IMG/VR virus record: IMGVR_UViG_3300023108_000130
Coordinates: 1-25,647 of that record
Direction: 5' to 3' (one strand)
Length of the DNA: 25,647 nt
From: a virus
Lineage: Duplodnaviria > Caudoviricetes
The position numbers and the translations under genes are program-made. Of this stretch, positions 1 through 8,680 are shown piece by piece; the first letter of the stretch is position 1; the number at the start of each line of letters is the position of its first letter. The notes beneath the pieces are model-generated. The model saw only the letters and a list, made by a program, of their open reading frames with translations. It had not been told where the DNA came from and ran no database searches.

Positions 1-542
1 AAGCATCCTGGTGGTAGTTGTTTGATTTCATTCCATGGTGTACCACCGGTTGGATCATAGCCCCATTTCATAGTATTAGAATGGAATAGTTCGTTACGTG
101 TAACTGGGCCAAAAGCTTTTAGTACATCTGGTTCGGATGCCATTGCTTCTACGTCTGTACGATAATATAAAGGCTTAATACCAAGGTGATCAGTGACACC
201 GAATAGTCTATTATCGACGATGGTTACATAAGTAAAGAATCCGTCGAATCTATTAAACTCGCGGATTCCTTTTATCCAAAATGTTTGCCATGCACATTCG
301 ATATCATTTGCAAAGCCAAGTTCTTCGTAGTTGAATATCTCACCGACGAATAGAGATTTATTCTGTGGCTGTATAGCTACCTTTGGATCCAGATTAACGA
401 ATGGTAAGCTATAATGCCCGAACTGAATAGCGTTATTGAATACCTCATAACCTTTAAAGCCAGGTAAACCTCGATAAGAGATATCCTCTAATAATTCTTC
501 GACATTCACATCTGTGTATGCTGCTGCAATGAATCCACACAT
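1..542 (-). CDS. Asparagine synthetase B-like glutamine amidotransferase (class II Ntn GATase N-terminal domain), runs off window edge
   Basis: Not in the ORF track. Manual translation from ATG at 542 gives MCGFIAAAYTDVNVEELLEDISYRGLPG...GHYSLPFVNLD...QPQ...FVGEIFNYEEL...FDGFFTYV...TDHLGIKPLYY...ASEPDVL...IKQLPPGC. It has the N-terminal Cys nucleophile and the RG, GEIFNY, DG.F, D..GIKPLYY, ASE and LPPG motifs of AsnB. Confidence 0.88.
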   Translation of the reverse strand, partial: MCGFIAAAYTDVNVEELLEDISYRGLPGFKGYEVFNNAIQFGHYSLPFVNLDPKVAIQPQNKSLFVGEIFNYEELGFANDIECAWQTFWIKGIREFNRFDGFFTYVTIVDNRLFGVTDHLGIKPLYYRTDVEAMASEPDVLKAFGPVTRNELFHSNTMKWGYDPTGGTPWNEIKQLPPGC

Positions 543-543
543 A

Positions 544-1284
544 TTATACTCCTATCAGTCTGCTCAAAGCAAATCTATCGTTCGCGAAACAATGTAAACT
601 AGTTGAGCTGAAATGTAAATACCCTACTTCAGCATCTATGCCACTTTTATCGATCATCCACTGTGTAAGTCTATTTGCGAAGTAAAGGTCGTTGTGCAAG
701 TGCCTTACGACGTCACACGAGCGCATATGATACGAACAGTGTAGTTGTCCACCACGTTCCATAAAGTGCCAACCAAAGGAACATGGCACTCGTTCACCTT
801 GGTTGGCTGCGATTATATCTTCAGGGAACCACATAGGGACATAGCATTGTCTGGTTGTGGGATCTTTTCTTAGTAGCTCTACACCATCACCCAGATTACC
901 AGTCTTAAACCGGATACCATCCATAGTCGGTGCCCACATCCGCTCGGGGTATGAATGGGAGAATGCTGCTTGATTCTCTGAAAGATATTTGTCGGTATCT
1001 TTTAACCACATTGTATGGGATGGCGGTGGATTAAGTGGTTCACCGCCTGTACGTTCATCGAAGTGTACATCTGCCCAAGGCTGTGATGCACCAAGTTCAT
1101 CAGAAGCTTTTCGTGCATCTGTGTACATTGGTGCAACCAGGTCAGCGTGGAGAATCTCTAGGAACTTAGGTGGCTCTTTGGTACCTTGCCACGAACCAGT
1201 CTGGATTTCATATCCTTGACGATAAAGTACTTCACGAAGCTTTGTCAGACCCTCTGCTAGTGTTCTGCCGCTTACTCTGTTCAT
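544..1284 (-). CDS. Thymidylate synthase-superfamily enzyme, dCMP hydroxymethylase-like (probable dCMP-modifying)
   Basis: Catalytic PC (RVPCS) and MRSCDVVRHLHND motif. The eighth residue after RSxD is Asp, as in T4 gp42 (RSNDVVFGFRND), rather than Asn as in ThyA (RSCDVFLGLPFN). ATG at 1284 is preferred over GTG at 1290. Confidence 0.8.
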   Translation of the reverse strand: MNRVSGRTLAEGLTKLREVLYRQGYEIQTGSWQGTKEPPKFLEILHADLVAPMYTDARKASDELGASQPWADVHFDERTGGEPLNPPPSHTMWLKDTDKYLSENQAAFSHSYPERMWAPTMDGIRFKTGNLGDGVELLRKDPTTRQCYVPMWFPEDIIAANQGERVPCSFGWHFMERGGQLHCSYHMRSCDVVRHLHNDLYFANRLTQWMIDKSGIDAEVGYLHFSSTSLHCFANDRFALSRLIGV

Positions 1285-1714
1285 TATCACTTACTCTCTT
1301 TCTCAAGTCAGTAGTCGAGAATCTATGATCCCGTTTATTATAATAAATCTCTATGCCACGTGCAGAGCATATAGCACGACCAGTGAACTTACCGTTCTTG
1401 TACTCTTCGCCAATAATACGAACATCTAAATTAAATAGCTGAAGGATGTCTTCCAGATCCTGTTCAGTCTGATAAGGTATAATCTCATCGACATACTTAA
1501 CACCTTGCAGCTGGGTCCATCTTTCAACTAAAGTCTGTACCGGTTTATTCTTCTCTATTCTATCATAGCTAGGGTCAACTTGTAAACAACAAATTAGCCA
1601 GTCGCATTGAGTTTTTGCCTCTCGAAGCATTGCAATGTGACCAGCATGTAATAGATCAAATGTAGAGGCTGTTATGCCTATAATTGTTTTAGTCTCTTCC
1701 AAGTATCTTCCCAT
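1232..1714 (-). CDS. Cytidylyltransferase (TagD/glycerol-3-phosphate cytidylyltransferase-like, HxGH family)
   Basis: TFDLLHAGH (HxGH), KPVQTLVER, KYVDEIIPY and R...FSTT motifs. Overlaps both neighbours; the start is uncertain. Confidence 0.88.
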   Translation of the reverse strand: MGRYLEETKTIIGITASTFDLLHAGHIAMLREAKTQCDWLICCLQVDPSYDRIEKNKPVQTLVERWTQLQGVKYVDEIIPYQTEQDLEDILQLFNLDVRIIGEEYKNGKFTGRAICSARGIEIYYNKRDHRFSTTDLRKRVSDNEQSKRQNTSRGSDKAS

Positions 1715-2370
1715 CCTTTAACTTGATGAACTACTCCGCCTCCTCTGGCCACTGCCAGAGACAATGTGTAGTCATTCCCGTTGGGTTCCATTTTATCGCC
1801 GTAGAAAGTAACCAAATTAGCCTCAAAGTCTTGTATAATTTGCGACTTATCCCTTCCCCTCCACATAATATCAATCCCCGTTTCGCCCGCCACACTAACA
1901 TTTAGACCCGGATATTTCCCAGAAAGAAATTCAACCATCGATTCTCTTTCCCCTTTATGTTCATCCCATTGTTTGTATAGAAATCTTTCTTCTAGGGTTG
2001 TCGGCCTACCAGGAATAGTAAAGTTAACCATCCCGGATCTTTTTTCTATGTGTCCACCTTTTTTAATATGAAACCTTGATTCACTTAAAATACGATTTAA
2101 ATCTATATCCAGTTCGTCCAAACATCCCATGGGCTCAGCCCGGATAAGATCATCTCCTTCCCATACTTCATTACCATTACAGTTATAGGATCTAACTGCT
2201 AAGTTGTATAGGTCTGATCCTAGTTGTTCTACACTAGCATCCTTATCTGATCCTGTCGCAAAATAAACCCTATTATTTGTAGCGAACTCCATAAACCATT
2301 TCTTGAAGGCTGGATCCATTCTTTGTCTGGATGGGGTAAGAGTTCCGTCTATATCAAAAATATAATGCAT
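1678..2370 (-). CDS. HAD-IIB phosphomannomutase-like phosphomutase/phosphatase
   Basis: FDIDGTLTPSRQ (DxDGT), TGSD, IEKRSGMVNF and FYGDKMEPNGNDY, matching eukaryotic-type PMM motifs. Confidence 0.85.
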   Translation of the reverse strand: MHYIFDIDGTLTPSRQRMDPAFKKWFMEFATNNRVYFATGSDKDASVEQLGSDLYNLAVRSYNCNGNEVWEGDDLIRAEPMGCLDELDIDLNRILSESRFHIKKGGHIEKRSGMVNFTIPGRPTTLEERFLYKQWDEHKGERESMVEFLSGKYPGLNVSVAGETGIDIMWRGRDKSQIIQDFEANLVTFYGDKMEPNGNDYTLSLAVARGGGVVHQVKGWEDTWKRLKQL

Positions 2371-2828
2371 TAGCCATTTAGATATTTGCCATAATCAAAT
2401 ATCTTCCCTTCTAAGTTCTTTAAAACGTGATCAGCTGGAATGTAATCTAATATCTCGTAATACACTACGTCTCCTTCCTGCAAAGTGTTATGCCATAAGG
2501 AAGGATGGGGCGAAAACTTCCAAGCCACTATATGATCGATCTTTCCCTCGTTAATGCATTTTTGTATGTAAGGAGAGATATGTATCTGATCAAACCTATT
2601 TACATGTTTAAAATCACAGTGCCCGAAGAACTTATGCACTGTATCATACTCATATCCTTCGTGGATCTCATGACCAGAAGCTTCGATTGAACATTGGTGA
2701 TGCTCCGGGAATTCAAAGTCCCACTGACGTTCTTTCCATTCTGCGTCCTCATCACGCTCATCCTCTTCAACCAGCTTATTACGGCGGTCAATAAATTCTT
2801 TTGTGACTTTACCCTTAAATTTCATCAT
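2370..2828 (-). CDS. Hypothetical protein (weak PD-(D/E)xK-like signature)
   Basis: 152-aa ORF coupled to both neighbours. YEYD...CDFK could be a nuclease motif, but support is weak. Confidence 0.65.
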   Translation of the reverse strand: MMKFKGKVTKEFIDRRNKLVEEDERDEDAEWKERQWDFEFPEHHQCSIEASGHEIHEGYEYDTVHKFFGHCDFKHVNRFDQIHISPYIQKCINEGKIDHIVAWKFSPHPSLWHNTLQEGDVVYYEILDYIPADHVLKNLEGKIFDYGKYLNG

Positions 2829-3168
2829 CCATATAACCTACTGTTTCACGTTCAATATCATTATGATTAAATTCTGCCCAGTATAACTCATAAGCTACAC
2901 CTGACTCGATGCATTCGAATTGGTGGTAAAGACCAGGCTTGACCTTATGGTAGTCGCCTTCTTTTAGGATAGTAACATCCACCAGATCATAATCTCGTTG
3001 CCAAGTTCGGATTAACATCTCACCGGACTCTACATAGAATCCATTCCATTTATATCGATGTAAGTGCTTAGAGCAAACACCTCCAGCTTCCATCTCGATA
3101 CGATGAAACTCTAAAGCGCCATTGGCTTCAATTAGTTCTGTCGTGCCCCATACTTTTCCTGCTTTCAT
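2815..3168 (-). CDS. Cupin-domain protein (sugar isomerase/mannose-6-phosphate isomerase-like)
   Basis: KVWG, CSKHLHRYKWNGFYVESG and VKPGLYHQF cupin motifs. GGAG SD sits before ATG 3168. Confidence 0.8.
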   Translation of the reverse strand: MKAGKVWGTTELIEANGALEFHRIEMEAGGVCSKHLHRYKWNGFYVESGEMLIRTWQRDYDLVDVTILKEGDYHKVKPGLYHQFECIESGVAYELYWAEFNHNDIERETVGYMDDEI

Positions 3169-3251
3169 TTGGTCATCTCCGTCCATGCTATGATTGCAAA
3201 TCCAATAATAATTAAGGCTAGAATAGCCACCGCTGTAAATACTTCATCCAT
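3165..3251 (-). CDS. 28-aa single-pass membrane peptide
   Basis: Manual translation MDEVFTAVAILALIIIGFAIIAWTEMTK. The start overlaps the end of the oxygenase gene and the stop overlaps the cupin ATG (ATGA). Confidence 0.65.
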   Translation of the reverse strand: MDEVFTAVAILALIIIGFAIIAWTEMTK

Positions 3252-3852
3252 TGATAAATGTCCACCATCCAGTTAAAATTTCTTTTTCTTGTGTTTCACT
3301 AACAATACCGCGATGAGTGTGTGTCCATGGTGCAGGCCAGATTACCGTTCTACCTTTAACTGCTTTTACTTTCATATCTTGGTATAAAAATTCGGTGCCG
3401 CCTTCAAAAGTGTTATCGGGATCCTCGACCGTATTAAGATATGTCATAAAAACCAAGTGTCGTGCACCCCCGAATTCATTACCAGTCTGTTCCATATGCC
3501 ACATCTTAAAGCCTTCACCAGGCTTATACCACTGGTAGTTCATAAATTCTTTAATACCATATTGGTTTACGTTATTTGACCACTCATATTTTTCATGATA
3601 CTTCGATAAACAAGGTCCCAAAACCTCGGTGATATAAGAATCCGATAGGCTAGGAGGCCAATCGTAAGAACTCATATCCGTGGATACTTTTTTATCGTAG
3701 TCGTTTGTCGATGGAATAACAACACCGTTGGCATCACTTTGAGATACGGCACCTTTATAATGATACTTGGGGTTGCCGTGAAAATAAATCTGGAATTCTT
3801 CGATTAATTCATCCGACATGGAATTATCATAAACTTCAATAAAGTTAGTCAT
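3244..3852 (-). CDS. 2OG-Fe(II) oxygenase (prolyl-4-hydroxylase-like, marine T4-type)
   Basis: YKPGEGFKMWHME (HxE), RHLVFMTYLN, GGTEF and WPAPWTHTHRG motifs. Confidence 0.9.
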   Translation of the reverse strand: MTNFIEVYDNSMSDELIEEFQIYFHGNPKYHYKGAVSQSDANGVVIPSTNDYDKKVSTDMSSYDWPPSLSDSYITEVLGPCLSKYHEKYEWSNNVNQYGIKEFMNYQWYKPGEGFKMWHMEQTGNEFGGARHLVFMTYLNTVEDPDNTFEGGTEFLYQDMKVKAVKGRTVIWPAPWTHTHRGIVSETQEKEILTGWWTFING

Positions 3853-4004
3853 AATTTATTCTCCGATAGTTCTCTAATACGAATATGAGCATTGTTTAAT
3901 TGCTCTTGTAGTTCTTTCACATTCTGTTTTAGGATCTCGATTGTATTAGCCTGCGATACAATGATCTTCCTATTCTTTTCGGCTTCCATTTCATCAGGTA
4001 GCAT
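3849..4004 (-). CDS. 51-aa coiled-coil small protein
   Basis: Manual translation MLPDEMEAEKNRKIIVSQANTIEILKQNVKELQEQLNNAHIRIRELSENKL. GGAG SD upstream; ATGA overlap with the oxygenase start. Confidence 0.7.
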   Translation of the reverse strand: MLPDEMEAEKNRKIIVSQANTIEILKQNVKELQEQLNNAHIRIRELSENKL

Positions 4005-4935
4005 TAAAGACTCCATTTCTATAAACATATTCTAGTGCGTTGTTGGCCTCTTTTTCCATTGGACGATTCTCATACCAATTACCGGTATCATGGTCAAACT
4101 GCTTACATAATTGTTCGATTTCTTTAGCAGTAATGGGATAGCCTTTAGAAACTGCTTGTCCTGCAACGGCTATCATTATCTGATACATTTTAGCGTACCA
4201 GCCAGTATTACTTATAGTAACATAATCGGCTGCAAGCTTCTTAGGCCAGAATGGACAATCATTATAACCGGACCAAGAGTATTGAGTATTTTCCAGTGAA
4301 TTCTTTCGGTGATCCATAATCTGTCGCTGCCACTCGTCAGGTAATCGGTCTAAGAAATTCTCTGCACGTTCCTTTAAGGAATAAGGATGTTTACCGCAAA
4401 GATCATCAACAGGTATGGGATCGCCAGTATTAGTAAAAATAAAGTTGTAAGCACCAGCATACGTTGCAGGGACGTAATACATTCTAGATAGATCTTTAGT
4501 TTGCTTATCTCCGATGCTTTCCAGCTCGGTGTTAAGTGCGTACCAGAAATGTTTGATTCTAGATTGTTCAACCTCCGAATCAAGTCTGAAGACAAGACGG
4601 AACTTCGGAAAATTCTCCTTACTGCTAGCGGTACTATAACACACAAAATCCCAATTACCAAAACGGCTAACAAGTTCATCCTTTAGATTTCCTTTAAATT
4701 CATGATCATCAACGTCAATAGCAGCCCAACCTGCCCAAGCCAATACGTTCTTATTGGCTCTAGTAGTATCCGGTGAGTAAGTAGCTGGTGATATAAGTTC
4801 AGCATCCTCTTTTCCATTTAATGGCCTTTCAGATAATTTATATAACATTTTAGTAAGCTGATCCCAAGTATTTAGGTCAACACGTTTATCAGTTTTATTG
4901 TCGAATCTGCTTTTGAATATAGTCAAAGAATACAT
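3994..4935 (-). CDS. Archaeo-eukaryotic primase (AEP/Prim-Pol)-like protein with helical C-terminal domain
   Basis: hhhDxDD motif (AAIDVDD), YSTASS...PKFRLVF and D...KDLSRMYYVP, typical of Prim-Pol/VirE-N-like AEPs. Coupled to the gp43 stop (TAATG). Confidence 0.72.
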   Translation of the reverse strand: MYSLTIFKSRFDNKTDKRVDLNTWDQLTKMLYKLSERPLNGKEDAELISPATYSPDTTRANKNVLAWAGWAAIDVDDHEFKGNLKDELVSRFGNWDFVCYSTASSKENFPKFRLVFRLDSEVEQSRIKHFWYALNTELESIGDKQTKDLSRMYYVPATYAGAYNFIFTNTGDPIPVDDLCGKHPYSLKERAENFLDRLPDEWQRQIMDHRKNSLENTQYSWSGYNDCPFWPKKLAADYVTISNTGWYAKMYQIMIAVAGQAVSKGYPITAKEIEQLCKQFDHDTGNWYENRPMEKEANNALEYVYRNGVFNAT

Positions 4936-7406
4936 TATACAAAGAACGCGTCCAGAGTAGCTCTGGGTTCGGTCTCCCAGTTGATTGTGTCCAAGATAGG
5001 TTGCAACGGATCTATGAAACCTTTCTCAAACATTTTACCATAATCTACGAAGGAATGTAACCCCAATTCTTTAGGTAAACCCTCCGGAAATGCAATAATA
5101 TTCTCTTTAATTGGATTCGGTTGTTTTAGATATAAGAACTTAATCTTGGAACCATTCTGTATAGATTCATACCGATTGGTTAATCCGCCTTTAGCCAAAT
5201 AGTGGTTATATAGAAGTGAACCACGGACATGGATTGGAGTACCCTTCGTATAGATATCGTGCTTATTACCAGCCCACTTTTTAATCTCAGTCACACCACG
5301 AGGGAATGCAGCGGCTTCTGGTGGTAGCGAGAAGAACTCCCGCTTGAACTCGGCAATGTATTTCTGAACCTCGGATTCGGTAGAACCCATGATGAGTTTA
5401 AATACGTGCTTAAACTTTTCACGCATGATCTCTGGGGTCGAAGACTTAATAGCCTCAATCCCCATAATCTTAATCTTGGGTTCCGAATACTGAACGCCTT
5501 CAGAGTTATGTACGTTTAGGATATAACGTTTCTTAGCTTGCCATATGCCGCGATCTGCAATAACCTCACGCTCCATAACCATTCGATTCTGATACGCATT
5601 CGTCTGTTCGAATAGATCCTGCATAGACCGTTCAAACATTGGATTAAAATGTTCTTCACAAATCTTAGATAGGAACTGGACTGGATCTTTAGGATTAAAC
5701 TTTTCTACTAGACCGGAGAAGTTAACATAGACCGAATCCGTATCGATTGCAATAACATAATCTTTATCTGTACCAAGGAGTTTGTTTAGTTCTGCATTCA
5801 CCGCCGACTCGCACCACTTAATGACCTTTTGACCAGTAAGGGTAATGCCTTCAGCAATACGCAGATCGAAGTATCGATACCACTTGTTGCCAAGTGCACC
5901 GAACAAACTATTGAGCAAAATCTTAATAGCCATTTGTCGGTTCTGACACCGAACAATCTCACGTTCAAGCTCTACTGATTTATTTTTCTGGTAAGCTTTT
6001 TGTGCAGCCAGCATCTGATTCTTTACGGTCTTACGTTCGGCATAATAGTCCACAATAATTTTAGGCATGATGCCTTCGAAGTCTTTGCGGTAATGACTAT
6101 TGTTAGCAGCTTTTGCATAATCACCATTAACATCCATTTCCATATTACTTACTATAGTTTCTGGTGACATATTCCACTGAGCAATAATGTTAGGATATAG
6201 GGAGTTAAGGTCAAAGCTAACCACCCACTCGTGCATACCAATCTGTGGTTCTTTCACGTACCCGCCCGCGAACGCGACGGTCTGTTTAGCCAGATCCTCA
6301 CGTGGTTTCATGGATGGAACCGCAATCTGCTTTTTATTCAGTTCCCGATATACAATAGAATCCCATATAGATGTAGTACCCATAACGTCAGTAAAGTTAA
6401 CACCGGCTTTGTATGCCAGGGTAAATGCCAAACCCATCAGGCCAGTCTTATCGTTAATGCGTTCTACCAGTTCAACGTCTTTTATGTTATAGTCGATATA
6501 GAGCTGGTGGTTTTCTTTATACAAATTTCTAAGGTTACCATACTCTTCATATGATAACTTACGTTCGCCCAGAACCACACTGGAGATATGGTTAAGACTA
6601 TAGCTTTCCTGTGGGCCGTATGCATAGCCAAACTTCTTAAACAGATCGAAGTAATCCATTTGACTAATGCCAACAATCATATATGAATCCTGGTTCATAT
6701 TTTTGAATTGTACCTGCTTTAGCCGTGGCTCTGCATTCCAAGGAGATAGACGCTTAGCCGCTTCTATTGTGCCAATACGGAGAATACGATTAATAATATA
6801 AGGCATATCGAAGAAGCGGATGTTCCACCCAGTGATTACATCCGGATAGTCTTTTTGCCAATACTTCAAAAATTTAATTAGTAATTCCTCTTCGGAATCA
6901 CATTTATGATACTGGATAAGCAAATGTTTATGAGGTGATTGTTCTACGTCATACTCGCCACACGCCCAGACGTGGTAAACATTAGACCGGCTGGATTTAA
7001 TTGTAATAGCAGTAATAGGATGAAGTGCTTCTTCAGGTGTGGGGAACCCATCTTCGGAGTGAACCTCGATATCAATATTGACCACATTGATCTGGGACTC
7101 GTCAAACTTTATTTCGTCTGGAAACTTTTCTGCAATAAACTGCATCACCGCACGATCCATACCACAGTACGGCTTACTGCCAGGAACCTCGTGCTGCTTT
7201 ACATATTCACGTAAATCTTTAGGGGAGTTAAGAATCTTTTCTTTTACATTGTGTCCGTGAATAGACTTCCATCCGGTTTCTTCTTCACAGTATTCGAACA
7301 TGGTTGGTTCAAAATTATATTTGTGGCTGACTGGTTTACCACTATCATTGTAGCCACGATATACGACGCGATTCATATACGTGTCGACTGATGTATAAAA
7401 ACTCAT
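4935..7406 (-). CDS. gp43: Family B DNA polymerase (T4 gp43)
   Basis: Exonuclease motifs [12 protein letters not shown] and YNIKD; polymerase motifs [23 protein letters not shown] and KKRY; C-terminal clamp-binding TLDAFF. Confidence 0.98.
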
Positions 7407-7764: not shown

Positions 7765-7998
7765 TTATTTTTTCTCTGAAACGAAGCTATACATTTCTTT
7801 AGCTTTGGACATTAGCTCATCCATAGAATACATTTTATTGGCTTCTTGCCATTGCTCCATAGTGACCTTACCGGCCTCAAACATTTTCTCAGCGAACTCG
7901 CGATTCATATGATATTGTTGATCCATGTAATCTTTTGCAAGTTGTAGCATTTCAGAACGAATCTCAAAGGGGTTTTTATTTGCCATAGTATTACTCAT
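7765..7998 (-). CDS. Hypothetical protein (KNPFEIR motif)
   Basis: Helical 77-aa ORF with ATGA coupling to the upstream gene. Confidence 0.8.
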   Translation of the reverse strand: MSNTMANKNPFEIRSEMLQLAKDYMDQQYHMNREFAEKMFEAGKVTMEQWQEANKMYSMDELMSKAKEMYSFVSEKK

Positions 7999-8207
7999 TT
8001 TATTACCTTTGCCATAGCTTCACCAGCTGCATTTGCAAATGCGTTGGTTTGTTTCATAGCATTTTTTGTAAATTCCGTTTGAACCTTAATGAACTCGTAT
8101 AGTGGCTCACTCATTGATTCATCTTTAACCCAAGTATCAACCCAAGTCTTTTTTGCATTTTGGATTGCATCAATCCATACGTTTGTAAGATAGTCTGTTG
8201 AGAACAT
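7995..8207 (-). CDS. Hypothetical amphipathic helical protein (phasin-like composition)
   Basis: AGGAG SD before ATG 8207 (MFSTDYL...). The product assignment is speculative. Confidence 0.72.
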   Translation of the reverse strand: MFSTDYLTNVWIDAIQNAKKTWVDTWVKDESMSEPLYEFIKVQTEFTKNAMKQTNAFANAAGEAMAKVIK

Positions 8208-8236
8208 TTTTCTCTCCTGTGTCTGTGTTGTGATCG

Positions 8237-8257
8237 AAGGGGCCATTACAGCCCCTT
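8237..8257 (-). promoter_or_regulatory. Intergenic stem-loop (processing/stability hairpin or weak terminator)
   Basis: AAGGGGC-7 nt-GCCCCTT inverted repeat with no U-tract on the minus strand. Confidence 0.5.
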
Positions 8258-8273
8258 TGCTAAGATTCTTCTA

Positions 8274-8456
8274 TTAGCCTTTCAGCTTTGCAATCTGCAT
8301 CATACAATTTTTTGCTAGGTCATGTTGACCTTGACTTGCAAAATGAGTAGCTGCTCTGCTATATCCAACAACTTCAGTCCATCTTAAAAATCCGGCCCAA
8401 AGTTTTTGGAAGTATGAACGATGATCGATAGTGACTGTATCTACTAAAAAAGCCAT
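8274..8456 (-). CDS. Small hypothetical protein (GYSRAA...G...A motif), coupled to DUF1127 gene
   Basis: 60-aa ORF with TAATG coupling. From memory it resembles small proteins of marine alphaproteobacteria; not verified. Confidence 0.75.
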   Translation of the reverse strand: MAFLVDTVTIDHRSYFQKLWAGFLRWTEVVGYSRAATHFASQGQHDLAKNCMMQIAKLKG

Positions 8457-8680
8457 TAGACAAATCCTTTTAAGTTAGGGTTAAAAGGAGAGATAAGATG
8501 TGATTGTTTCATATCTACATCCTGTCTAGCTATAGAATAGATATCGCCTCTTGCAATACCAATATCATTCAATTCTGCATCAGTTAGCTTACGCAATTCA
8601 TGTTCTGTTTGTCTGATTGCTTTAGCCATTTGATAGTTATTAATTAGCTTCTTGAAGAAGTTGTTTAGTGTCTGTGTCAT
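8456..8680 (-). CDS. DUF1127 (YjiS-like) small protein
   Basis: RQTEHELRKLTDAELNDIGIARGDI matches the DUF1127 consensus R.L..LsD..L.DIGl.R.dI. GAGGA SD lies inside the hsp20 3' end. Confidence 0.9.
   Translation of the reverse strand: MTQTLNNFFKKLINNYQMAKAIRQTEHELRKLTDAELNDIGIARGDIYSIARQDVDMKQSHLISPFNPNLKGFV

Follow-up and report, generated by a model that had tools for sequence, protein, structure and literature searches.

A cassette of T4-like phages that probably modifies cytosine encodes a thymidylate synthase homolog, a compact AsnB-like enzyme and a dCMP deaminase

The DNA analysed here, the window, is a 25,647-nucleotide fragment of a T4-like phage (IMG/VR record IMGVR_UViG_3300023108_000130), and the system in question is a group of minus-strand genes at its left end that encode, among others, a thymidylate synthase (TS) homolog and an AsnB-like enzyme (Table 1). 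An original prediction made from the sequence had joined six genes, those of a 2-oxoglutarate (2OG) oxygenase, a cupin, a phosphomannomutase (PMM)-like enzyme, a cytidylyltransferase (CTase), the TS homolog and the AsnB-like enzyme, into one pathway for a cytosine carrying a sugar or polyol group. Their order and place are borne out by open reading frame (ORF) calls and by Pfam matches, which lie above the cut-offs for all six, and the labels are good to family level. The six genes are nevertheless parts of two modules. The TS homolog, the compact AsnB-like enzyme and a deoxycytidine monophosphate (dCMP) deaminase are present or absent as one block, hereafter the cassette, whereas the cupin, PMM and CTase genes belong to a resident run that continues in a UDP-glucose-dehydrogenase-like (UGDH-like) gene. 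The cassette is real and undescribed as far as the literature was searched, and we think it likely that a modified cytosine is made with the participation of both the TS and the AsnB-like enzyme. The sugar part of the original prediction is rejected.

The primase-like and gp43 DNA polymerase genes form the left flank of a slot that runs to UvsX-gp40-gp41. The starts and stops of neighbouring ORFs in the run overlap or sit at most 1 nt apart, and the run is therefore gap-free, as had been claimed, except that the claim omitted two ORFs of 152 and 28 aa. The DNA beyond the left edge is supplied by the IMG/VR locus L001, which is 99.95% identical to the window over 4128 nt and extends 10 kb beyond the TS gene. 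L001 completes the AsnB-like protein to 430 aa and continues with the deaminase, a 289-aa UGDH-like gene and UvsX. Next come an adenosine phosphosulfate (APS)-kinase-like gene, a second gene of cytidylyltransferase type, gp40 and gp41, followed by ThyX and a PRA-PH pyrophosphohydrolase, and after these a 122-aa protein, an epimerase and a gene resembling those of cell-wall hydrolases. Eight of the L001 proteins were scanned against Pfam, and the other labels come from protein clusters and the Pfam matches of their distant members. The gp40 and SleB labels are our own assignments, and we presume the 122-aa protein, which has no Pfam match, to be of the NmAD type.

Table 1 Genes of the cassette, its neighbours in the window and related genes elsewhere
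Feature	Position	Strand	Basis or remark
Primase-like gene and gp43 DNA polymerase	3994..7406	-	primase-like 3994-4935, gp43 4935-7406
59-aa ORF	between primase-like gene and 2OG gene	-	sequence
2OG-Fe(II) oxygenase, motif HME..HTHRG	3244..3852	-	Pfam 2OG-FeII_Oxy_3
28-aa hydrophobic ORF	3165..3251	-	bridges 2OG gene and cupin; sequence
Small cupin, 117 aa from ATG 3168	2815..3168 (or 3186)	-	Pfam Cupin_2
152-aa protein, no family match	2370..2828	-	patchy among TS loci
PMM-like HAD-IIB enzyme, motif DIDGT	1678..2370	-	Pfam PMM
TagD/RfaE-like HxGH nucleotidyltransferase (HAGH)	1232..1714	-	Pfam CTP_transf_like
TS-fold dCMP-type enzyme, 248 aa from GTG 1290 or 246 aa from ATG 1284	544..1290	-	Pfam Thymidylat_synt PF00303
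AsnB-like enzyme, 5' 180 codons, cut by window edge	1..542	-	Pfam GATase_7; remainder in L001:3587-4879
dCMP deaminase, third cassette gene	off window, L001:4872-5303		downstream of AsnB-like gene
Degenerate second TS	L068:5114-6007 (Muddy gp47); L069:5874-6935 (Zuko gp75); also L070, L071, L072, L073, L074

Linkage was assessed in 67 loci anchored on the TS gene, 66 of which have a callable TS. An AsnB-like gene follows TS in 60 of the 61 loci with 2.5 kb of downstream sequence, at a distance of 1 nt in this phage, and the deaminase is found in 61 of 61. The upstream genes behave otherwise: across the 41 TS loci with 3.2 kb upstream, the CTase occurs in 22, the cupin in 17, the PMM-like gene in 13, the 152-aa protein in 12 (13 of the full 67) and the 2OG gene in one. 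Anchoring on the sugar genes gives TS in 7 of 80 CTase loci and 6 of 38 PMM loci, nearly all close kin of this phage, and the cupin in 42 of the 80 CTase loci, mostly without the cassette. Among 78 rows in which a CTase is followed by a UGDH-like gene, 25 hold TS, AsnB and deaminase in a gap of 2.4-4.3 kb and 53 hold none of them; 51 of the latter have a gap of 5-71 nt and two have one of 1194 nt, the insert in L350 being an epimerase. Some contigs are taken twice in the 78 rows, which contain 15 (with) and 40 (without) distinct CTase sequences. Five changes of the cassette are required on a UvsX tree of 67 rows, and well-supported branches force three or more of them. Since the CTase and UGDH-like genes stand without the cassette in 53 loci, the cupin, PMM and CTase genes are resident neighbours. 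A different TS, accompanied by uracil-DNA-glycosylase (UDG)-like and pyridoxal phosphate (PLP)-enzyme genes and three unassigned genes, occupies the same primase-to-UvsX slot in L388:6447-11976, and together with the insertion-deletion pattern this means that the slot hosts exchangeable TS cassettes within the resident sugar run.

These counts decide the fate of the sugar-based pathway, in which the PMM, cupin and CTase, perhaps with the UGDH-like enzyme, would make an NDP-sugar or CDP-polyol for the modified cytosine and the AsnB-like enzyme would amidate a uronic acid. The tight adjacency in this phage speaks for it, as do the 23 of 61 TS loci in which the UGDH-like gene lies close downstream; in phage S-SCSM1, moreover, a compact AsnB stands among glycosyltransferases. 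We nevertheless consider it highly improbable: the sugar run is intact in the cassette-free loci, 13 rows with the cassette lack all four sugar genes in the primase-UvsX interval, and the S-SCSM1 AsnB falls outside the AsnB clade described below. The 80 loci examined from the wider TS clade likewise contain a single cupin and no match for PMM, CTase or UGDH. Linkage in relatives, which had been named beforehand as the test of this proposal, thus failed for the cupin, PMM, CTase and 2OG genes, and their supposed role as suppliers of a sugar or polyol donor for cytosine goes with it. The transferase and kinase expected beyond the left edge were not recognised in L001 either. No glycosyltransferase was seen in its 10 kb past TS, most of the genome lying beyond this DNA, and inspection of the adjacent DNA for a transferase, a deoxynucleoside monophosphate (dNMP) kinase or a dCTPase returned only a candidate for the last of these, the PRA-PH pyrophosphohydrolase.

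Several neighbours were tried as pathway enzymes and rejected. Of the 67 loci, two (L001 and L010, each nearly identical to the window) contribute members to the 2OG cluster, and the gene is absent from L002, L004, L005 and L006, whose TS is 96% identical; the 2OG oxygenase is a strain-level extra gene, and its proposed use as the oxidant of hydroxymethylcytosine (hmC) to carboxycytosine was dismissed on the 2 of 67 count. The UGDH-like protein as oxidant of hmC was dismissed on its occurrence in 23 of 61 cassette loci and in the 53 loci without the cassette. The APS-kinase-like gene was rejected as the pathway kinase because it occurs in only 8 of 67 TS loci and is also present in loci without the cassette.

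Many marine T4-like phages have the sugar run itself, cupin-PMM-CTase-UGDH-like, in the primase-to-UvsX slot (the 53 loci, in L344-L449) with no recognised transferase, and in some loci (L015-L017) KDO8P-synthase-like and CMP-KDO-synthetase-like genes join it. Our guess is that it serves virion or surface glycans. The CTase keeps HxGH and scores under both equivalog cut-offs (TagD 67 bits vs 165, RfaE 74 vs 181); its homologs occur in 126 cultured phage records. The cupin had been taken for an isomerase, a role that finds no support in its matches (Cupin_2; PHROG 'cysteine dioxygenase'; WbuC below cut-off). For the 152-aa protein, profile searches gave no family match and the ESM Atlas nothing.

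Residue numbers of the TS homolog refer to the alignment with E. coli ThyA; in its own numbering Cys146 is Cys170, Arg143 is Arg167, Ser147 is Ser171, Asp169 is Asp193, Arg172-His173 is Arg196-His197 and Asp177 is Asp201. Cys146, Arg166, Asp169 and His207 are kept as in ThyA. Asp177, Ser/Thr147 and Arg143 replace the Asn177, His147 and Leu143 of the canonical ThyA signature, and Arg-His stands at 172-173, in 66 of 66 close relatives; the His takes the place of Gly173 of the folate pocket. Arg143, Asp169, His173 and Asp177 are invariant in 14 sequences down to 22% identity. In the 80 loci of the wider clade, selected by a pattern of which Arg143 was part, Asp169 is found in 79, Asp177 in 79 and His173 in 73. 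Glu166 (own numbering), beside Arg167, is invariant in the close relatives only. A single search with the clade motif found TS relatives in 538 IMG/VR stretches, and the nearest cultured relatives are those of Muddy, Zuko, Gordonia CT phages, Serbin, PMBT14 and CPD4. The TS gene has 45.5% G+C, its neighbours 37-41%.

Asp177 marks the use of dCMP according to two reports (PMC8670742; PMC13326640), the second of which links methylation to Leu143, hydroxymethylation to Asp/Glu143 and 5-hydroxylation to D169N. With its TS fold, Cys146 and Asp177, the protein has the features of the dCMP-utilising TS homologs. The Asp/Glu143 of the T4-type dCMP hydroxymethylase is Arg in 66 of 66 relatives, and a 5-hydroxy-dCMP synthase was ruled out, as the D169N change is missing: Asp169 is shared by the close relatives (66 of 66) and by 79 of 80 clade loci. 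Judged by these residues, the enzyme fits none of the three product signatures. A structure model (pLDDT 77.5, residues 87-129 poor) was compared by Foldseek with the HY126 dCMP hydroxylase (9IQC/9IQU; TM 0.64-0.65, 14-16% identity), MilA (0.63) and ThyA (0.55-0.6), and matches the three about equally; the ESM Atlas returned TS clusters only. With the linkage in 60 of 61 loci and Asp177, the predicted coupling of a dCMP-type TS homolog to an AsnB-like enzyme in the gp43-to-UvsX slot holds, and a cytosine product is probable.

The AsnB-like protein has an N-terminal nucleophile (Ntn) domain with Cys1, followed by a PP-loop synthetase domain (SGGxDS). Its model (pLDDT 92) has E. coli AsnB as best fold match (TM 0.78), with beta-lactam synthetase and TsnB9 also among the matches, and the AsnB-family enzymes among these matches act on carboxylates. 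A quick tree of 46 rows groups 26 proteins in a single clade (SH-aLRT 99), which excludes 15 longer AsnBs, SpCmoY, TurkishDelight gp124 and the Motura and S-SCSM1 proteins; the branches are long and the outer placements unsure. All 26 keep Cys1, Arg30, Gly75, Asp98, Ser234 and Asp238 (PP-loop), Asp351, Glu352 and Lys449. In asparagine synthetase B, a protein of about 550 aa that has Glu348, the DVTTIRAS segment binds aspartate, and Arg49 and Asn74 bind glutamine. The 430-aa phage protein lacks the segment and this Glu: in 26 of 26, D[LM/Y]GSxxPQ replaces DVTTIRAS, Asp stands for Glu348 and His for Asp384, and the part scanned scores far below the AsnB equivalog cut-offs. The closest cellular relatives, from 5 of 64 parts of a genome collection, share 23-27% identity. 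On these residues we read the protein as a putative adenylating, amide-forming enzyme with a substrate other than aspartate and an uncertain nitrogen donor. Of the ATP/glutamine-dependent amidation that had been proposed, the ATP part stands with the conserved ATP-site residues, while the use of glutamine is doubtful, the equivalents of Arg49 and Asn74 being Ser and Val.

These features also bear on whether any DNA is modified at all. The genes might instead adjust nucleotide or nitrogen pools through asparagine synthesis and dTMP supply, as the database names 'asparagine synthase' and 'thymidylate synthase' would have it, and no base has been observed. We hold this to be very unlikely in view of Asp177, the lost aspartate-binding segment and the low equivalog scores. 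A separate ThyX lies about 5 kb past TS in L001, and this TS is therefore not needed for dTMP.

The TS + AsnB pair recurs in unrelated phages (L091, L095, L096, L100, L105, L123, L124, L128 and L131), with an AsnB identity of ~33-45%. A pyrophosphohydrolase, a kinase, a dUTPase, a deaminase or a polymerase is encoded close by. In L123 and L128, near-identical AsnBs adjoin TS proteins of two different subtypes, which suggests exchange of one partner. In the cultured phages of the TS clade, TS is accompanied by a kinase, a pyrophosphohydrolase, PolA, a hypothetical gene and, in most, a deaminase. This hypothetical gene, placed before TS, aligns as a degenerate TS that keeps Cys, Arg and Asp at the 146, 166 and 177 columns (its profile matches to the TS family are weak, E 0.1-1), and it is possibly a heterodimer partner or the enzyme of a second step. 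Among the 80 clade loci (L218-L297) the second TS is present in 62 and AsnB within 5 kb in 4, all 4 without a second TS; the clade pattern favours siphovirus-type sequences and would miss a more distant second TS (possibly L236/L239). In the large phages L097, L099, L113, L121 and L125, a P-loop kinase and a clade AsnB lie directly behind capsid-region genes.

From this distribution it could be argued that the TS modifies dCMP while the AsnB-like enzyme does a side job, such as re-amination of a deaminated modified nucleotide, nitrogen supply, or amidation of a virion protein or another metabolite. The 62 clade loci with a second TS and no AsnB would suit such a role, as would the AsnB and kinase behind capsid genes in the L097-type phages, where the partial sequence has no TS, and the deaminase and UDG-like genes that travel with the cassette. 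Against it stand the direct coupling in 60 of 61 loci, the joint loss of AsnB and TS in 53 of 53, and the 4 clade loci in which AsnB occurs without the second TS, as expected of alternative second steps. A mere side job is, in our judgement, quite unlikely.

We tentatively favour a pathway in which the cassette makes an amide-bearing cytosine nucleotide, in its carboxamide version, that is copied into the phage DNA; the product is unobserved, and we give this chemistry a chance slightly short of even. A PRA-PH/MazG-type pyrophosphohydrolase would first turn dCTP into dCMP. Cys170 (own numbering) of the TS homolog, whose preference for dCMP is indicated by Asp177, would then attack C6 and add a substituent at C5, with Arg143 and Arg172-His173 predicted to hold a carboxylate, most simply that of a carboxymethyl-type group. 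Arg143 lies where T4 places the water for the exocyclic carbon, a position that would suit a carboxylate. The AsnB-like enzyme would adenylate the carboxylate with ATP, and ammonia or an amine would displace AMP to give a carboxamide such as 5-carbamoylmethyl-dC. The deaminase may divert some dCMP to dUMP for ThyX, as in T4, and a kinase would complete the triphosphate. A modified cytosine of this kind would shield the phage DNA against restriction. The carboxamide is favoured because AsnB-type enzymes need a carboxylate and because CmoY, the only such enzyme characterised for phage DNA, amidates 5-carboxymethylcytosine.

The pathway could also run through 5-hydroxymethyl-dCMP: the TS would make this nucleotide, and the AsnB-like enzyme would activate its hydroxyl with ATP so that ammonia or an amine could take its place, the product being a cytosine of 5-aminomethyl type. 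By default the family uses folate chemistry, and Asp169 is kept. Moreover, TS, PRA-PH and dCMP deaminase are the core found beside the 5hmC carbamoyltransferase in the MetaGPA report (PMC8670742), and amines displace a phosphorylated 5-hydroxymethyl group in thymidine hypermodification, according to another (PMC8989533). Arg143 in 66 of 66 is, however, not the Asp/Glu of T4-like hydroxymethylases and MilA (PMC13326640, in part). Gly173 of the folate pocket is His. With carboxylates as the substrates of the AsnB-family fold matches, the 5-aminomethyl route strikes us as unlikely.

A number of observations weigh against the carboxamide reading, some of them against any joint action of the two enzymes. 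We know of no TS-fold enzyme that adds a carboxylate, the loci contain no recognisable CmoA-like donor synthase, and the suggested role of Arg143 follows from its column position, not from a ligand model. A dNMP kinase was identified in neither the window nor L001. The glutamine-binding Arg49 and Asn74, Ser and Val in this protein, are retained in only 15 and 12 of the 26 clade members. L045 has TS and deaminase without AsnB, and since AsnB is found in only 4 of 80 clade loci, the TS clade does not need it. In L097, L099, L113, L121 and L125 a narrow profile matched no TS in records 15-51% complete. Cultured phages gave no close AsnB at 1e-5 (best 23-29% at E up to 10). In MetaGPA data Asn_synthase is not significantly enriched on C-modified contigs (6 vs 255, p 0.059, corrected 1), a count that pools all AsnBs, and GATase_7 is depleted. 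On the supporting side stand the palindromes, which were counted against synonymous shuffles in four core genes (gp43, primase, UvsX and gp41). The loci, 25 with the cassette and 26 without, were hand-picked from the tree; L001, which has no core genes, was left out (25 of 26 positive loci kept). Six-mer palindromes containing C have a median observed/expected ratio (O/E) of 1.01 in positive against 0.86 in negative loci (p 0.005), so that they are avoided in the negative loci only, and AT-only ones 0.88 against 0.82 (p 0.23). TCGA (1.06 against 0.64) drives much of this signal, which is reversed or absent for GCGC, GGCC, CCGG and CTAG, and TTAA also differs. The palindromes thus lean to relaxed restriction pressure by a weak signal, with statistics that ignore kinship and host.

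A bolder version, which we offer as a speculation with perhaps more chance of being wrong than right by a wide measure, extends the carboxamide reading to the whole TS clade. The widespread Arg143/His173/Asp177 enzymes would provide dCMP with a carboxyl-bearing two-carbon group instead of a one-carbon unit from folate; marine T4-like phages would amidate it with their virus-specific AsnB and so exchange cytosine for 5-carbamoylmethylcytosine, the DNA counterpart of ncm5U in tRNA, and Muddy-, Zuko- and CT-type phages would finish the same intermediate with the second TS-like subunit.

Other phages contain further candidate enzymes. C5-methyltransferase-like genes stand beside the TS clade or AsnB in 8 loci (L105, L129, L229, L236, L239, L260, L295 and L296); no such gene occurs in the window or L001. 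Seven of the 8 proteins have Lys at the column where a CmoX-like protein has Arg, the site at which Arg350 or an engineered N374K admits carboxy-S-adenosylmethionine (Cx-SAM), and several have Asp for the Glu of the ENV motif. They are candidates for natural N374K-type carboxymethyltransferases or for enzymes acting on already modified C, and for the carboxylate of our favoured pathway they are a hint, though one from other phages. An amino-methyltransferase-like protein (DPTxGTGT, GSPY/GTPY/NPPY, mostly with an N-terminal CxCxxC) is encoded in L057:2954-3865 and 19 other TS loci; it accompanies TS and AsnB also in L096, L105, L124, L128 and L296, is fused to the C5 enzyme in L105, and is absent near the cassette of this phage. 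Achromobacter phage Motura has a 7-deazaguanine cluster (L153:5395-8699) in which a compact AsnB stands between QueC and a transglycosylase; this AsnB is a candidate enzyme for 7-amido-7-deazaguanine or a related base. Elsewhere in the window, four short ORFs at 7765-8680 precede an Hsp20-like gene and include helical Ala/Lys-rich proteins, which we take to resemble phasin and DUF1127 types; they may hint at an alphaproteobacterial host.

Pre-replicative modification of phage cytosine is known with methyl, hydroxymethyl and hydroxyl groups at C5. A TS-fold enzyme acting with an amidotransferase would, if the reading is true, add a nitrogen-bearing base and probably a new TS chemistry. The pair is common, to judge from the 538 TS stretches and from AsnB-like matches that number thousands of proteins, and the presence of the TS clade in cultured phages, including mycobacteriophage Muddy, makes its product readable from virion DNA. 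On this evidence the cassette genes should not be annotated as 'auxiliary metabolic genes' for dTMP or asparagine, nor the sugar genes counted in the pathway. No description of the TS + AsnB pair was found in the literature searched, which left outside subscription papers, bioRxiv supplements and Iyer et al. 2013, the last of which may cover such neighbourhoods; unnamed amidotransferases beside thymidine-modification genes are mentioned in the part of PMC8989533 available.

Among known systems, the hm-dC pathway of T4 (gp56, gp42, gp1, cd and alpha/beta-glucosyltransferase) likewise has a TS fold with Asp177 encoded between the polymerase and UvsX-gp40-gp41, the order that we take to be that of T4, and a pyrophosphohydrolase and a dCMP deaminase nearby. 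It differs in that here Arg143 stands in place of Asp/Glu, position 173 is His, AsnB follows TS, and no glucosyltransferase is recognised. The 5-hydroxy-dCMP synthases of RB69, DLP3, HY126 and RL38JI, with arabinose or galactose transfer, are alike in the top fold match of HY126 and in NDP-sugar genes nearby, and unlike in D169N, absent here, and in that the sugar genes of our loci are unlinked (PMC13326640, in the part available). For traits of the T4/RB69/RL38JI type in general, the 10 kb covered show no glycosyltransferase, most of the genome lying outside. The 5-carbamoyloxymethyl-C system of MetaGPA shares a TS with Asp177, PRA-PH, dCMP deaminase and one added N-transfer enzyme; there, according to PMC8670742, that enzyme transfers a carbamoyl group to 5hmC, and no such carbamoyltransferase was seen in the proteins scanned here.

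The second half of the pathway has its nearest parallel in Synechococcus phage S-B43, where CmoA, CmoX and CmoY make 5-carboxymethyl-C glycine amide and CmoY, an asparagine-synthetase homolog beside the cytosine-C5 modifying enzyme, amidates 5-carboxymethyl-C in DNA, as described in the available part of PMC12783734. The C5 step there is post-replicative and uses a DNA-methyltransferase fold with Cx-SAM, whereas a TS fold on dCMP is used here, and neither CmoX (SPPC, Arg350) nor CmoA beside a ligase was found in the window or L001. SpCmoY (271 aa, without Ntn domain) matches the AsnB family at E 0.012 and lies outside the clade; orthology to CmoY is not supported by the separate clade in the quick tree with its long branches. 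TurkishDelight has a trio of CmoX-like, GATase-AsnB and CmoA-like genes whose AsnB is similarly compact (466 aa; 26% identity over 383 columns) and again falls outside the clade. We infer that its gp124 belongs to the A0A7T0Q3R0 cluster of PMC12783734, in the available part of which a GATase-bearing, CmoY-related cluster is predicted to use ammonia. The cassette of Muddy, Zuko, Gordonia CT, Serbin, PMBT14 and CPD4, for whose DNA bases no paper was found, has a TS of the same clade (RxPC, RSxDxxxH..D; 29-43% identity) with kinase, pyrophosphohydrolase, deaminase and polymerase genes, and differs in the degenerate second TS-like gene that stands in place of AsnB. The first step of the cassette is thus like the pre-replicative pathway of T4 and the second like CmoY, and from each family tested it departs in a defining feature.

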